A stretch of DNA of 64,000 nucleotides from Escherichia coli. Its GTDB lineage: Bacteria; Pseudomonadota; Gammaproteobacteria; Enterobacterales; Enterobacteriaceae. The notes beneath the pieces were generated by a model. That model was not told the DNA's origin. It worked only from the letters and a program-made list of their open reading frames with translations, and did no database searches. The stretch is from NCBI RefSeq assembly GCF_024223415.1, contig NZ_CP100503.1, one strand, 5' to 3'. This document shows positions 38,101-64,000 of the stretch, piece after piece (the first letter of the stretch is position 1; every line of letters starts with the position of its first letter). A program made the translations under genes and the position numbers.

Positions 38101-40068
38101 ATCGGCGTACTCCGGCAGGAAACGATAGGTGATCCTGCGATAGTACAGGTCCATGTCAGTACATACGCGGTCCATATCCCTGATTATTGAGAAGATCGGA
38201 CGGGCTTTCTCGTGCTCAATCACGCCGTCTTCATTGACCGAGGTCGTTACGCCATTGTTGGCTTTGGCTGCCGCTTCCGCCTGCTGACGCAATTCTTCAT
38301 ACGCCGCCAGTTGTTCTTCCGTAAGTGGTGCATCCTGCTGGTGTTCGTCCAGTTCCGGGATCTCCACGGTATCCTTAACGTCTTCCGCCGTTTTAAGCGT
38401 TGTCCAGCGATGGAATATGCCGCGCAGCGCATCAAGGTTTTCAAAGCCCACCAGCGCCATTTTTTCTTCAACTTCACCGCTAATTTTCTGTACCGTTTCC
38501 AGCCTGGTCTTGCCGAAGAATTTAACGAAGTCATCAGGACCGTAGATCCCCATCTTCTGCCAGTATTCCTTCGGCAGCACATGAGAAAGCATGTTGTATG
38601 CATCGATCGGGGTGTTAACGACTGGCGTTGCAGTCAGGAGAACCGGTCCGCGCCCACCATTCTTTTTCATCAGGTACGCGTTTTTAATTGCCATATCCCG
38701 CGCCGATTGCGCCACCGCGCTGGTGGGCAGATAGGCCAGTTGTGACGCTTCGCGACCATTTTTATAGCTATTGCGGTAGTTGTGACCTTCGTCAGCGATC
38801 ACACTATCGAAGCCCATATCCTCAAAGTACGGATACTTCTCTGCTTTTTCGGTGCCGGTATCTGAATACTCCGACAATACCCGGCGACGCGCGGCCTCTT
38901 TGCGGTGGGAGTCGGAGTCCATTGCGCTGGCTACGCGCCCGGCGGCAACGAAGTCATAAAGCATATCCTGTGCATGCTCATCTACGGTGTCATCACGTAG
39001 CGGAATGCGGGCGTATTGTTCTTTGGTAAACACGACTGCACGGTAATTTGAGTGCGGGATCGCGTTCATCCGCGCCGTGATAGTGGCTTCATCTGCCAGC
39101 TTAAGAGCATCGCGCATAACTGGAGTGCCATCAGTACCAAGAACAGGTTTACCGTTCTCATTGAGCACCGGCACCTGGCGAATCTGATCGCCATCCATCA
39201 GCACATCAAGACCGACGAACAGGTAGTTACTGAATGCCTCTTCACTCAGGAACTCTTTTGCTTCGTAATACCAGTTTTCCAGCACTGATTTAGGCACTAC
39301 ATACGCAGTACGGGTGGAACGACCGTTCTCATAGTTGAACGCCTCAAGCGCCAGCGCGGTCGTGGTTTTACCCAGCCCGGTACCGAAGCCCAGGATGCCG
39401 CGCCCATCTTCGGACAGTCGGCGCACCTCGCTATTCTGGTAATCAAATGGCTGTCGCTTACCGCTTAATCCCTTCAACCCAAGCGGATCGCCAGAGTGTT
39501 CATACGGGATATTGCTATTGAACACATCGTTGTATTTGGCAACCAGCTCATCGTAGCGATCGTGCGTCTTGATCCACTTATTGAACTGGTCCTCAAGCAG
39601 TGCCATCTGCTCGCGGTAGCCGTTCGCCGTCGCGCTATCTTTGCCACCGATACGCGCACCATTGAGATACTTTTCCAGCTGTGCCGGGAACCCGGTCGCG
39701 TTTTCACCTGATTTACGGTCCCACTCGTAGCGGATCTCGCCTGTTTCTTTATCCTTGCGCTGGACGACACCGTATCGGTGCCCGACGAACAGACCATCAC
39801 CACCGTGATAGGTGTCAGAAACCATTTCGTCGCCTTCCAGCTGCACTGACTGCACATAGCGAAGATCCGGATAGCCGTTTTCCTGCAAAAATTCCAGAAT
39901 GACGGAACGGTCGAACCAACGGCTATTGAGCTTAAAGCGGATATTCTCTGCTGGCGTCTTGATGCGCTTCTCTTCGATCGCTGCCAGCTGATTAAGGACG
40001 TTGTTCTTTACCCAGTGCGCCGTAAAGCCCCGTCCTTCAGGTCGGGGATATAAGGCGCGGTTTTCCAC
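35179..40068 (-). CDS. DarB-like SF2 helicase-domain protein, 5'-truncated by IS-B (1629 aa; first 19 codons IS-derived)
   Basis: Walker A GFGTGLGKTT and DExH VIADEGHNY; the ORF start lies inside the IS left end (40012-40068), and no methyltransferase-like N-terminal domain (expected from P1 DarB as I recall) is present. Confidence 0.55.
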   Translation of the reverse strand: MENRALYPRPEGRGFTAHWVKNNVLNQLAAIEEKRIKTPAENIRFKLNSRWFDRSVILEFLQENGYPDLRYVQSVQLEGDEMVSDTYHGGDGLFVGHRYGVVQRKDKETGEIRYEWDRKSGENATGFPAQLEKYLNGARIGGKDSATANGYREQMALLEDQFNKWIKTHDRYDELVAKYNDVFNSNIPYEHSGDPLGLKGLSGKRQPFDYQNSEVRRLSEDGRGILGFGTGLGKTTTALALEAFNYENGRSTRTAYVVPKSVLENWYYEAKEFLSEEAFSNYLFVGLDVLMDGDQIRQVPVLNENGKPVLGTDGTPVMRDALKLADEATITARMNAIPHSNYRAVVFTKEQYARIPLRDDTVDEHAQDMLYDFVAAGRVASAMDSDSHRKEAARRRVLSEYSDTGTEKAEKYPYFEDMGFDSVIADEGHNYRNSYKNGREASQLAYLPTSAVAQSARDMAIKNAYLMKKNGGRGPVLLTATPVVNTPIDAYNMLSHVLPKEYWQKMGIYGPDDFVKFFGKTRLETVQKISGEVEEKMALVGFENLDALRGIFHRWTTLKTAEDVKDTVEIPELDEHQQDAPLTEEQLAAYEELRQQAEAAAKANNGVTTSVNEDGVIEHEKARPIFSIIRDMDRVCTDMDLYYRRITYRFLPEYADAVQQLADSLPKQATSEDDDSDDSITQQSQYSLIDKGEFIQLQVPEAFEQEVNKRLARFGIDEQTVTHPVTPKYAKLIATLKEFFPEGKQIIFTDEKTQHQKLKRIICNALNLEPSKVGILNAQTVAEAGKTGKKLKAVKPPKELPDEPTDAQIAKYNEQMALYDAYIAQQNEMSLGGLEKIAADFQEGRTPIIICNKKAEVGINLHRGTTDIHHLTLPWTPASIAQRNGRGARVGSNRASVRVHYYCGKGSFDEYRLKTLKRKAGWISDILRSDKSEMENADANDMIEMQMYTAKDDGERLAMMQVQMDKAKAAQRARQKEQATIDLQNYIKAQHAAGEDVEVLTAELERSKAELEKTTAEVAKFKQAVMAKAADNADWKARWGSVHHTDRMLLAQYRASLKNAIQRKANISQAISRYEKLLNRTQKAATDIKRLRPLVEDAINKGILDVDPDLVNHASEFLVIGDRSWRVGQYYDCAGDIVRIKSLDFDSQRADVEIIFTFKGTKSGNWDVKTLDKQVDVTPDEDAVMQKISGGVSIAGINDIISCDDFYRFQQRGMIKITDSYGVQTTESGYSIDFVGTYTDPLKHAVYPDRRDGALKSSIAKWVLGMMSEGNNRQIRSAETFLVELFGSNYGDVIASYGDTLSPEAIQEKIADAIARMPEKTSQGATRNGDSELEVTNAIFGTNEFRASDYEITTAQFGTIGIYSNKAEIKQAMDAASARIAAERKANLNHAVAALTQSWVTAIREAATTGKITPAIADVVNDGSKFMDAYQMDAVKLPSAYGQLSYRMTYNLVSMFSDLAILGLVDLNEVTPELLSMRKNHVEILQRINTVLAGRTDEEKQADADRINLALGNITEEEIAARNEKQEELSSIQGDATSIAQSLGLNYRVSTADLKMMYAPKFAAGEVFGLQEASGMKGVLFRAKDAIKAKFGARWLPAKAKNSDFPGNWWIIETKHNVADVLAVIQQYA

Positions 40069-40605
40069 CTAACCAGGTGTTTGCTGTTGTTCAATGTATT
40101 GGCGGATGATGGATATTGGTGCGCCACCGCAGCTACTGGCAAAATAGCTGGGACTCCATAAAACGCCTTTGTAGTAATATCGGGCTGCAATATCTGGTCG
40201 ATCTCGTCGCAATAATCTACTCGATACGCCCTTGAGACTGTTCACCAGGCTGGATATCGCCAATTTGGGGGGATAGTTAATTAGCAGGTGAACGTGATCT
40301 CGTTCTCCATCCATTTCAACCAGTTCAGCTTCAAAATCAGCACATACACTTGAAAAGTAAGTGCGTAGTTTTTCTATTGCGTCATGGTCAAAAATCTGAC
40401 GTCGGTATTTTGCGACAAAGACCAGGTGAACGTGCATCAGGAAGACGCAGTGTCTTCCACGTCGGATATCAGTTTCTTTTTTTATGGACCAAAGTATAAT
40501 TTGGCTTATGAAACGACTACAAGCTTTCAAATTCCAGTTAAGACCAAATGGACAGCAGGAGCGTGAAATGAGGCGCTTCGCGGGCGCATGTCGTTTCGTT
40601 TTCAA
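40069..40605 (-). CDS. tnpA: TnpA Y1 (HUH) transposase of IS-B (N-terminus of track ORF probably over-extended)
   Basis: HVHLVF motif; homologous to IS-A TnpA. Confidence 0.75.
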   Translation of the reverse strand: MKTKRHAPAKRLISRSCCPFGLNWNLKACSRFISQIILWSIKKETDIRRGRHCVFLMHVHLVFVAKYRRQIFDHDAIEKLRTYFSSVCADFEAELVEMDGERDHVHLLINYPPKLAISSLVNSLKGVSSRLLRRDRPDIAARYYYKGVLWSPSYFASSCGGAPISIIRQYIEQQQTPG

Positions 40606-62885: not shown

Positions 62886-63996
62886 TCGTGCTCTGGCGCT
62901 TCAGAATGAGAATCATGAGGCCGGGAACAAATATATTTCTTATGCAAAGATGACTTCCTGGCTGGTTGAATGGAAAAATGCTACTGAAACGCAATGGCTT
63001 AAAGATTCTCCCTCACAGCCATTGCAGCAGTCACTGAAAGACCTTGAGCGAGCCTACAAAAATTTCTTTCAGAAGCGTGCCTCTTTTCCCCGCTTCAAAA
63101 AGCGGGGACAGAATGATGCATTCCGCTATCCGCAGGGCGTTAAGCTCGACCAAGGGAACGGTCGTATTTTTCTGCCAAAACTTGGCTGGATGCACTACCG
63201 GAACAGCCGTCAGGTCTCGGGGATTGTGAAAAACGTCACTGTCAGCCAGTCCTGCGGTAAGTGGTACATCAGTATTCAGACAGAAAGTGAAGTATCAACT
63301 CCGGTTCACCCTTCAGCATCAATAGTCGGTCTGGATGCAGGCGTGGCTAAACTCGCCATGCTGTCAGATGGCACAGTCTTTGAGCCTGTAAACAGTTTTC
63401 AGAAAAACCAGAAGACGCTGGCGAGACTTCAGCGTCAGTTAAGCCGCAAGGTCAAATTCAGCAATAACTGGCAGAAGCAGAAACGCAAAATACAGCGACT
63501 GCATTCCCGTATCGCAAATATCCGCAGGGACTACCTTCACAAAGTCACAACGACCGTCAGCAAAAACCACGCAATGATAGTCATTGAGGATTTGAAGGTC
63601 AGCAACATGTCAAAGTCAGCAGCGGGTACGGTCAGCCAGCCGGGGCGCAATGTCCGGGCAAAATCAGGTTTAAACCGTTCGATACTGGATCAGGGCTGGT
63701 ATGAAATGCGCCGTCAGCTTGAGTACAAGCAGCTCTGGCGAGGCGGTCAGGTGCTTGCGGTTCCGCCAGCGTACACAAGCCAGCGTTGTGCGTGCTGTGG
63801 TCATACAGCGAAAGAAAACCGCCTGTCACAAAGTCAATTCAGATGCCAGGTATGTGGATATACAGCGAACGCCGATGTAAACGGCGCTCGTAACATTTTA
63901 GCGGCGGGGCACGCCGTTCTTGCCTGTGGAGGGATGGTGCAGTCAGGCCGCCCGTTGAAGCAGGAACCCACCGAAATGATTCAGGCGACAGCCTGA
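62764..63996 (+). CDS. tnpB: TnpB of IS-B copy 2 (410 aa)
   Basis: Differs from copy 1 at two residues (T/M and C/R). Confidence 0.85.
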
Positions 63997-64000
63997 ACGT

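Follow-up and report, generated by a model that had tools for sequence, protein, structure and literature searches.

An IS609-like element joins darB to icd in a P1-like phage-plasmid of Escherichia coli and points to an IS-associated deletion

What happened to the backbone of a P1-like phage-plasmid in which one insertion sequence (IS) lies in two genes, and where is the DNA that once adjoined them? A sequence-only reading of 64,000 nucleotides of an Escherichia coli contig (NZ_CP100503.1; this whole stretch is referred to as the window) had proposed that two direct IS copies truncate darB and dmt, and that the backbone underwent IS-associated rearrangement or deletion. Most of the window was covered by blocks in P1 order with 95–98.5% identity. 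At its start we found the P1 genes 5, 6, 24, 7, 25 and 26 (P1 73.7–78.5 kb), in canonical order before pmgL...pap. These had been taken for displaced baseplate genes, but they occupy their normal P1 place; a different cluster, 16/bplA/sit/tub, has its P1 place between darB and immI, and the window lacks it. Between the two IS copies, the following backbone features were recognized:

41798–42835, plus strand: ant1/ant2 antirepressor gene, with a 345-aa product that is identical in many relatives
43000–44675, plus strand: kilA and repL (lytic replicon, oriL), whose products match P1 KilA at 100% and P1 RepL at 98% amino-acid identity
45922–53681, minus strand: bplB, pmgG, 21, 22 (sheath), 23 (capsid), parS, parB and parA, all full length
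53850–55893, minus strand: T5orf172-like gene and divergent repA, whose product has 41% amino-acid identity to P1 RepA

ParA and ParB are 99.7% identical to their P1 counterparts, and the RepA variant is the same as in the relatives L010–L019. Thus, plasmid maintenance functions (repA/oriR, parABS) are present in the window, and the virion genes that remain there are all intact. In the P1 alignment, P1 15302–48142 had no counterpart anywhere in the window. The window therefore has no complete virion and lysis gene set, and the sequence once situated between darB and the immunity module is, as proposed, gone from this place.

The IS copies were delimited as follows:

40007–40011, plus strand: TTTAC target of copy 1, host darB sequence that is intact in the uninterrupted P1 darB
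40012–41759, plus strand: IS copy 1, a 1748 bp IS609-like element of the IS200/IS605 family, boundaries from the P1 alignment
40069–40485, minus strand: tnpA of copy 1, Y1/HUH transposase of 138 codons (NF033573 transpos_IS200, E=4.6e-43, full profile)
40508–41716, plus strand: tnpB of copy 1, RNA-guided endonuclease (NF040570 guided_TnpB, E=7.7e-117, profile positions 1–388 of 389)
62287–62291, plus strand: TTTAC target of copy 2, host dmt sequence that is intact in the uninterrupted dmt of P1 and of the relative L011
62292–64000, plus strand: IS copy 2, with the window ending 39 nt before its expected right end
62349–62765, minus strand: tnpA of copy 2, with an ATG start
62788–63996, plus strand: tnpB of copy 2, contained in the window

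A long repeat (40007–41720 versus 62287–64000) in the same orientation, whose starts are 22,280 bp apart, bears out the two direct copies about 22 kb apart, and the TTTAC noted before each copy is host sequence in both cases. Since the P1 alignment crosses TTTAC in both genes, ending at P1 15301 (darB) at copy 1 and at P1 68049 (dmt) at copy 2, the IS starts are 40012 and 62292. Copy 1 has its right end at 41759 (..GGATGTCAA), and the next base, 41760, corresponds to P1 48650. All right ends checked share this terminal sequence and close on GTCAA, and TTAC precedes all six left ends checked (two in the window, four in other records). Neither target duplication nor terminal inverted repeats were found at the IS, and TTAC is part of the uninterrupted host gene. 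DNA folds revealed subterminal hairpins at both ends (z=-4.0 left, z=-2.2 right). TTAC occupies 0.4% of the P1 plus-strand positions and occurs about 476 times in the window, both strands counted.

With a Y1 TnpA, a TnpB, a TTAC target and hairpins, the element belongs to the IS608/IS609 group of the IS200/IS605 family. It has the gene pair, ends and target of IS609 of E. coli, of which most E. coli genomes hold chromosomal copies. However, chromosomal copies labelled IS609 family in RefSeq are only 93–94% identical to copy 1, and the closest copies (99.7%, found on two E. coli plasmids) reside on IncI-type and other plasmids. By ISfinder convention, about 95% nucleotide identity defines the same IS. 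In IS608 of Helicobacter pylori tnpA and tnpB are co-directional, whereas in the window they are divergent with overlapping 5' ends. The likeness to IS608 lies in the Y1 TnpA and TnpB, the TTAC left end, the TCAA right end and the subterminal hairpins; IS608 likewise inserts after TTAC and has imperfect hairpins without inverted repeats or target duplication (PMC5027513). The several insertion sites suggest that the element may transpose or excise.

The two copies, described at first as identical, differ at 8 of the 1709 comparable IS bases (99.5% identity) and represent two haplotypes, each of which is also present in other records. At position 40483 copy 1 has T, while copy 2 and all 13 database copies checked have C, and with this base change the tnpA start codon of copy 1 is ATA instead of ATG. 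TnpB of copy 1 comprises 402 aa with the RefSeq start, or 410 aa from the ATG at 40484. By exact-protein look-up, TnpB of copy 2 was found only in two unrelated small contigs. Gene conversion by a second IS was considered as the source of the differences and rejected, since that IS matches copy 1 at five of the eight sites and copy 2 at three, and since both haplotypes occur elsewhere. This IS variant also occurs in other phage-plasmids.

At copy 1, two gene remnants flank the element:

35179–40011, minus strand: darB', the 3' part of darB, encoding DarB residues 646–2255 (helicase part), 98.5% identical to P1 9743–15301
41760–41801, plus strand: icd', the last 13 codons and stop of icd, corresponding to P1 48650–48691; this flank is also predicted to encode the guide of the copy 1 TnpB RNA

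The 1629-aa open reading frame on the minus strand (35179–40068) consists of 19 IS-derived codons, starting with GTG at 40068, followed by DarB 646–2255 as determined by tblastn. Pfam detected only SNF2 and Helicase_C in the retained part; N6_Mtase and Eco57I fall in the missing 645 aa, which agrees with the suspected loss of the methyltransferase part. N-terminally truncated DarB relatives of 1623 aa, retrieved by homology search, turned out to be internal-deletion variants and do not share this junction. On the other side of copy 1, the icd tail expected there was found from base 41760 onwards. Its counterpart is preceded by ..AGTTAC in P1 and eight relatives, and in intact icd of wild-type relatives the sequence after TTAC agrees with the right flank of copy 1 without mismatch over at least 26 nt. 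That is, copy 1 joins darB (P1 15301) with icd (P1 48650), and P1 synteny breaks there only at the IS. Downstream of the joint, ant1/ant2 lacks a c4 RNA of its own as well as the a/b target sites and the icd 5' part. Upstream of ant no Rfam C4 match was found, and three such matches lie elsewhere in the window.

At copy 2, the dmt remnant reads as follows:

59631–62291, plus strand: dmt', codons 1–887 of an intein-bearing allele whose full length is 1095 aa

Its reading frame continues 13 codons into the IS and stops at 62333. Only positions 3–63 of the 267 positions of the Dam profile are left, in line with an insertion within the Dam-like tail. L011 carries the full-length allele, with 3 differences over 13,563 nt.

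IS-free relatives show what these regions looked like before. In relatives with identical neighbouring proteins, full-length DarB is followed by prt and pro, 16-bplA-sit-tub...icd lies upstream of ant, and ban, dbn and genes 5 and 6 come after a full-length Dmt. The P1 gene order is kept in these relatives, the darB–icd joint was absent from all of them that were compared, and darB and dmt are truncated in the window; on both counts on which it might have failed beforehand, the proposed IS-associated rearrangement or deletion of the backbone held. Because the relatives keep intact darB, icd and dmt regions, about 33 kb have indeed been lost or rearranged at copy 1.

The junctions themselves were then sought in sequence collections. 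Megablast against phages, PLSDB and complete E. coli genomes yielded no place that covers at least 80% of a junction query. The exact dmt|IS junction had no match in IMG/VR, GTDB representatives or metagenomes. Patterns of the IS right end gave no match, or only two unrelated chance matches (L047 and L048), and a synthetic query of the icd|IS, IS|darB-5' and IS|dmt-3' junctions retrieved whole IS copies only. Across all of these collections, neither an IS at the icd TTAC nor any of the three observed or three hypothetical junctions was detected. Exact-protein look-ups with the Dmt–IS fusion, the IS–DarB fusion, both TnpBs and a junction-specific 358-aa Ant returned nothing relevant. One match starting 22 nt before an IS (H115) proved to be an unrelated phage-plasmid.

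Taking these results together, we consider it probable that the window holds most of a P1-like phage-plasmid that was colonised by the IS609-like element and then lost about 33 kb by recombination between IS copies in darB and icd. The IS would have transposed as single-stranded DNA, always just 3' of TTAC, into three sites in the same orientation: darB (after P1 15301), icd (after P1 48649) and dmt (after P1 68049). As the IS has a fixed target and TTAC is present in the wild-type sequence, the former second insertion site can be inferred. Homologous recombination between the darB and icd copies would then have removed P1 15302–48649 together with one IS. This loss would comprise the darB 5' part, prt, pro, the lysis genes, ssb, the darA operon, cin and the tail fibres, as well as 16, bplA, sit, tub, sim or its replacement, c4 and the icd 5' part, and these would be missing from the rest of the genome, too. 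The result would be a hybrid copy with darB' to the left and icd' to the right. Such a recombination product is the most likely identity of copy 1, because its right flank starts just 3' of the TTAC in intact icd. The simplest account of copy 2 is a plain insertion, which would have removed the Dam catalytic part of Dmt; its right flank should then read AAGACTCTGCAACG... (dmt 3'). The end product would be a plasmid of about 70 kb that replicates and partitions yet no longer makes virions. Besides the absence of its junctions from the collections searched, two points sit uneasily with such a deletion. By our own reasoning, the icd TTAC would be on the leading-strand template in a bidirectional oriR model, the side disfavoured by this IS family. 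Furthermore, the wild-type darB and icd sites both read TTAC|TGGA, and the extra 4 nt would be either a coincidence or a sign that the IS prefers a wider target.

Alternatively, the 33-kb block could have been relocated: excised as a circle via three direct IS and re-integrated at the dmt copy, giving the arrangement A-IS-C-IS-B-IS-D and a complete phage of about 105 kb. Copy 2 sits exactly where re-integration is expected, and the right flank of copy 2 would then be TGGACCGTCGGTGAGC (darB 5' side). The other virion genes of the window are all intact; this suggests a very recent event if the block was deleted, and fits equally well with a block that sits elsewhere. On the other hand, relocation takes one recombination step more than deletion, and neither an IS|darB-5' nor an icd-5'|IS junction was found in the collections searched. 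A genome of about 105 kb would also leave little terminal redundancy for headful packaging. We regard relocation as unlikely.

A mis-assembly is rated lower still. Here, three simple insertions would stand in canonical order, and the assembler would have passed from the IS in darB straight to that in icd across the 1.75-kb repeat, skipping 33 kb. Mis-joins classically arise at repeats of this kind (1.7 kb, 99.5% identity), and the joint was found in no other record. Yet copies 1 and 2 were kept distinct at eight positions, which suggests that the repeats were resolved in the assembly, and defective P1-like plasmids of 60–70 kb do exist (PMC10879196).

A deletion that preceded the IS is very improbable. 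It would have used the 8-bp microhomology TTACTGGA of the darB and icd sites, and the IS would later have entered the TTAC of an IS-free joint reading ..TTCTTTACTGGAGCCTCC... The shared TTAC|TGGA fits such a course, but the IS would have had to pick this one TTAC among all those in the window, and TGGAG is likewise the right flank of the IS at another locus (L007), a hint of target preference and not of microhomology. Just as little can be said for the 22-kb block (ant, kilA, repL, par, rep, dmt') and its two copies as a composite mobile unit or excisable mini-replicon: direct repeats do flank both replicons and the partition system, but IS200/IS605 elements move as short single-stranded circles and composite transposons are not known among them (PMC5027513), the placement of the block with respect to both neighbours is, deletion aside, that of P1, with inner and outer flanks in P1 order, and the two copies are of different haplotypes. 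Nothing shows that this stretch acts as one unit.

If copy 1 indeed arose by IS-by-IS deletion, its outcome resembles a known route in P1 derivatives. When direct IS1 copies recombine there, the interval is deleted and one hybrid copy stays; the difference is that the IS of the window is a single-strand transposon with a fixed target. Defective P1-like plasmids, with a P1 backbone that retains replication and partition and lacks blocks of virion genes, have already been described, and no new mechanism is implied. In contrast to those, the breakpoints here are base-resolved and tied to one IS, and the remaining virion genes are intact. The window would thus offer a base-resolved case of a phage-plasmid turning into a plain plasmid by an ordinary, well-understood decay route, where a TTAC-targeted single-strand IS and recombination of two copies removed the virion and lysis block and spared the replicons and the partition system. 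It would also account for three local effects: DarB loses its methylase part, Dmt loses Dam activity and ant is uncoupled from c4/icd control. The practical use lies mainly in annotation and in typing such plasmids as defective.

The sequence immediately beyond the right end of the IS encodes the guide RNA of TnpB, and the guide of copy 1 should therefore match the icd tail. We tentatively raise, without expecting it to hold, the idea that copy 1 TnpB is a putative RNA-guided nuclease against the immunity region of intact P1-like phages of the same lineage. Its predicted target in intact icd would be GTTAC followed by TGGAGCCTCCCCTTCTCTGC, with TTAC as the required adjacent motif. In the window, TCAA stands at the position of the icd' TTAC and no other similar site occurs, so that the own plasmid would be spared. 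If true, superinfecting or co-resident wild-type copies would be cut, which would amount to an accidental exclusion or drive function.

The dmt allele interrupted by copy 2 carries one further insertion:

59862–60884, plus strand: intein of 341 aa, located before the catalytic Cys of the PCQ motif

This intein is not part of the IS event.

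Alignment to phage P1 (NC_005856), used as reference, identified the window as a P1-like phage-plasmid with its genes in P1 order:

1-10685: equivalent to P1 73786-84482; genes 5, 6, 24, 7, 25 and 26, plus pmgL to pap
10761-16796: type I restriction-modification operon, a 6.2-kb non-P1 insert with hsdR, a 411-aa gene (presumably hsdS) and hsdM
Downstream of the insert: phd-doc-lpa-pacAB, c1, lox-cre, c8, mat, lxc, ulx and darB, to P1 15301
3' of the first IS copy: order resumes at P1 48650-68049 with the icd tail, ant, kilA, repL, bplB, pmgG, 21, 22, 23, parS/B/A, repA, upfA to hrdC and dmt
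After the dmt remnant: second IS copy, continuing past the window end

The hsd operon stands where P1 has pmgT to humD. No sequence matching P1 15302-48142 was found anywhere in the 64-kb window. The sequence-only reading described a real arrangement and placed it accurately, but erred in taking the baseplate genes as displaced to the window start, where P1 genes 5 to 26 occupy their normal position. The cluster that P1 carries between darB and immI (16, bplA, sit, tub) is absent from the window.

Both break sites carry a direct repeat in the same orientation (40007-41720 and 62287-64000, spacing 22,280 bp). Its initial TTTAC is host-gene sequence in both cases, as P1 without the IS reads ..GTTCTTTAC|TGGACCG in darB and ..AACTTTTAC|AAGACTC in dmt. 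Thus, the element spans 1748 bp (40012-41759), while copy 2 begins at 62292 and lacks its final 39 nt at the window end. Profile searches identified its products as a Y1 transposase of the IS200 type and TnpB, an RNA-guided endonuclease. Subterminal hairpins are present at both ends, and the right end reads ..GGATGTCAA. TTAC precedes all six readable left ends from the window and other records, while TCAA closes every right end compared, which is the rule known for IS608 (PMC5027513). Copies from E. coli chromosomes, labelled IS609 family, share 93-94% identity with the window IS, compared to 99.7% for copies on two E. coli plasmids; the same TnpA is present in several further phage-plasmid contigs.

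The copies had been called identical, yet 8 of 1709 positions distinguish them. At six clustered tnpB sites, copy 1 has the haplotype of plasmid copies in two other records (L006, L007) and copy 2 that of another two (L008, L009). Judged by these haplotypes, they are two circulating subvariants and not the outcome of a recent duplication. At 40483, copy 1 differs in having ATA instead of ATG as its tnpA start codon, a change unique against 14 other copies compared; copy 1 probably relies on TnpA from another copy.

A second, different IS200/IS605 element (27358-29169, inverted orientation, TnpA 134 aa, TnpB 409 aa) lies between cre and c8. It resembles the first IS only in the last ~650 nt of tnpB and the right end (~96% identity), swaps the last three Cre residues (DGD) for VDILPHLRTS and is absent from all ten relatives with an identical 370-aa Ant-like gene (L037-L046).

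Truncation of both host genes was borne out. DarB keeps residues 646-2255 (99.3% identity), including the SNF2 and helicase domains, in a 1629-aa ORF whose first 19 codons derive from the IS; the N6_Mtase and Eco57I domains sit in the lost 645 residues. The dmt remnant retains 887 codons followed by 13 IS codons, and matches only positions 3-63 of the 267-position Dam profile, of which positions 66-262 are covered by the missing P1 dmt tail. Near-identical relatives encode this allele, which includes a 341-aa intein, at its full length of 1095 aa. The intein (59862-60884, Hint and LAGLIDADG-type matches) separates GGTP from the catalytic Cys of PCQ, a motif in the cytosine-5 methylase domain. 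Many relatives share the 1095-aa allele, and a single one encodes 1203 aa instead; no account of the intein emerged from a brief search of the literature.

Copy 1 is flanked on its right by the end of icd, as had been noted, although the 14 codons are 13 codons plus the stop. Intact icd reads ..CACTTAGTTAC|TGGAGCCTCC in P1 and in eight contigs with identical Ant1, except that P1 has TGGAACC after the break, so that the right flank begins exactly 3' of TTAC. With TTAC at 0.4% of P1 plus-strand positions, chance is an unlikely explanation; the flank is as would be expected from insertion of the same IS into icd. In the simplest history, darB and icd would each have harboured a copy, and the two would have undergone homologous recombination with loss of ~33 kb and one IS, leaving a hybrid copy between the remnants of darB and icd. 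We consider such a deletion the most parsimonious reading, with somewhat better than even confidence. Apart from the truncated ones, all remaining P1-homologous genes are full length, as would fit either a recent event or a location of the block elsewhere.

IS-free relatives show canonical order around all sides of the break sites. Contigs with an identical 370-aa Ant-like protein carry lxc-ulx-DarB (2255 aa)-prt-pro, and those with identical Ant1 carry 16-bplA-pmgA-sit-pmgB-tub-pmgC...icd-ant. In L011 (GCA_044685035.1, DBBFES010000024.1; 3 mismatches in 13.5 kb), ban, dbn and genes 5 and 6 come after a full-length Dmt. The gene order of the window thus does not recur in IS-free relatives, and its darB and dmt ORFs are not full length, which removes both grounds on which the rearrangement proposed earlier would have been refuted. 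L011, with its dmt free of the IS, might be the same deletion plasmid. Its record spans 68,683 bp; adding the 6.1 kb from dmt to gene 5 to a window stripped of copy 2 predicts a circle of 68,399 bp.

Relocation of the ~33-kb block behind copy 2 would also account for full-length neighbours, but is unlikely, and we regard a mis-join across the IS repeat as quite improbable. The hypothetical junctions icd|IS, IS|darB-5' and IS|dmt-3' gave no record in any collection searched. The observed junctions (darB|IS, IS|icd, dmt|IS) likewise had no record in phages, PLSDB, complete E. coli genomes, IMG/VR, GTDB representatives or metagenomes. Far less probable is a microhomology deletion via the shared TTACTGGA with the IS arriving at the joint later, since this requires the choice of one TTAC among about 476 sites. 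In their uninterrupted form, darB and icd have 8 nt in common where they break, TTAC|TGGA:

Window 40007-40015 and 41756-41763
P1 15298-15305 and 48646-48653

An unrelated insertion of the same IS in L007 has TGGAG as right flank too; the shared motif may be due to chance or to a preferred target longer than TTAC.

Overall, this P1-like plasmid offers a new instance of an ordinary and already known kind of event, a deletion or rearrangement mediated by an IS. If the 33 kb are truly absent, the plasmid keeps oriR/repA, parABS, oriL/repL, immunity, addiction and type I restriction-modification, but would neither assemble particles nor lyse the cell; P1-derived plasmids of such a defective type have been described (PMC10879196). 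DNA immediately beyond the IS right end supplies the guide of TnpB, and the target motif must lie beside the target (10.1101/2023.03.14.532601; PMC8612924). The predicted copy 1 guide would match TTAC+TGGAGCCTCCCC.. where wild-type relatives have an intact icd, whereas the corresponding place in the window is TCAA. Thus, the plasmid might cut intact relatives at icd. No further site similar to this target was found within the 64-kb window.

Ahead of ant1, which now lies directly 3' of tnpB on the same strand, the canonical c4 RNA, c4 target sites and icd 5' part are missing. The window has three further c4-icd-ant modules, which adjoin c1, replace ref and replace res/mod; Rfam detects a C4 antisense RNA in each:

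22217-23804, plus strand
29786-31322, minus strand
32833-34417, plus strand

The same three-module layout exists in L037-L046. L039 and L040 carry an identical icd-ant (370-aa) module at 9783-11113, between lyz and pro instead of beside lxc; judged by this difference in position, these immunity modules move within P1-like backbones.

RepA (53850-55893 region) shares only 41% identity with P1 RepA. A 269-aa T5orf172-like gene lies between parA and repA, an arrangement common to relatives L010-L019. Finally, 44689-45880 replaces P1 rlfA/rlfB/pmgF, and a sok antitoxin RNA match inside it at 44984-45158 indicates a hok/sok module.
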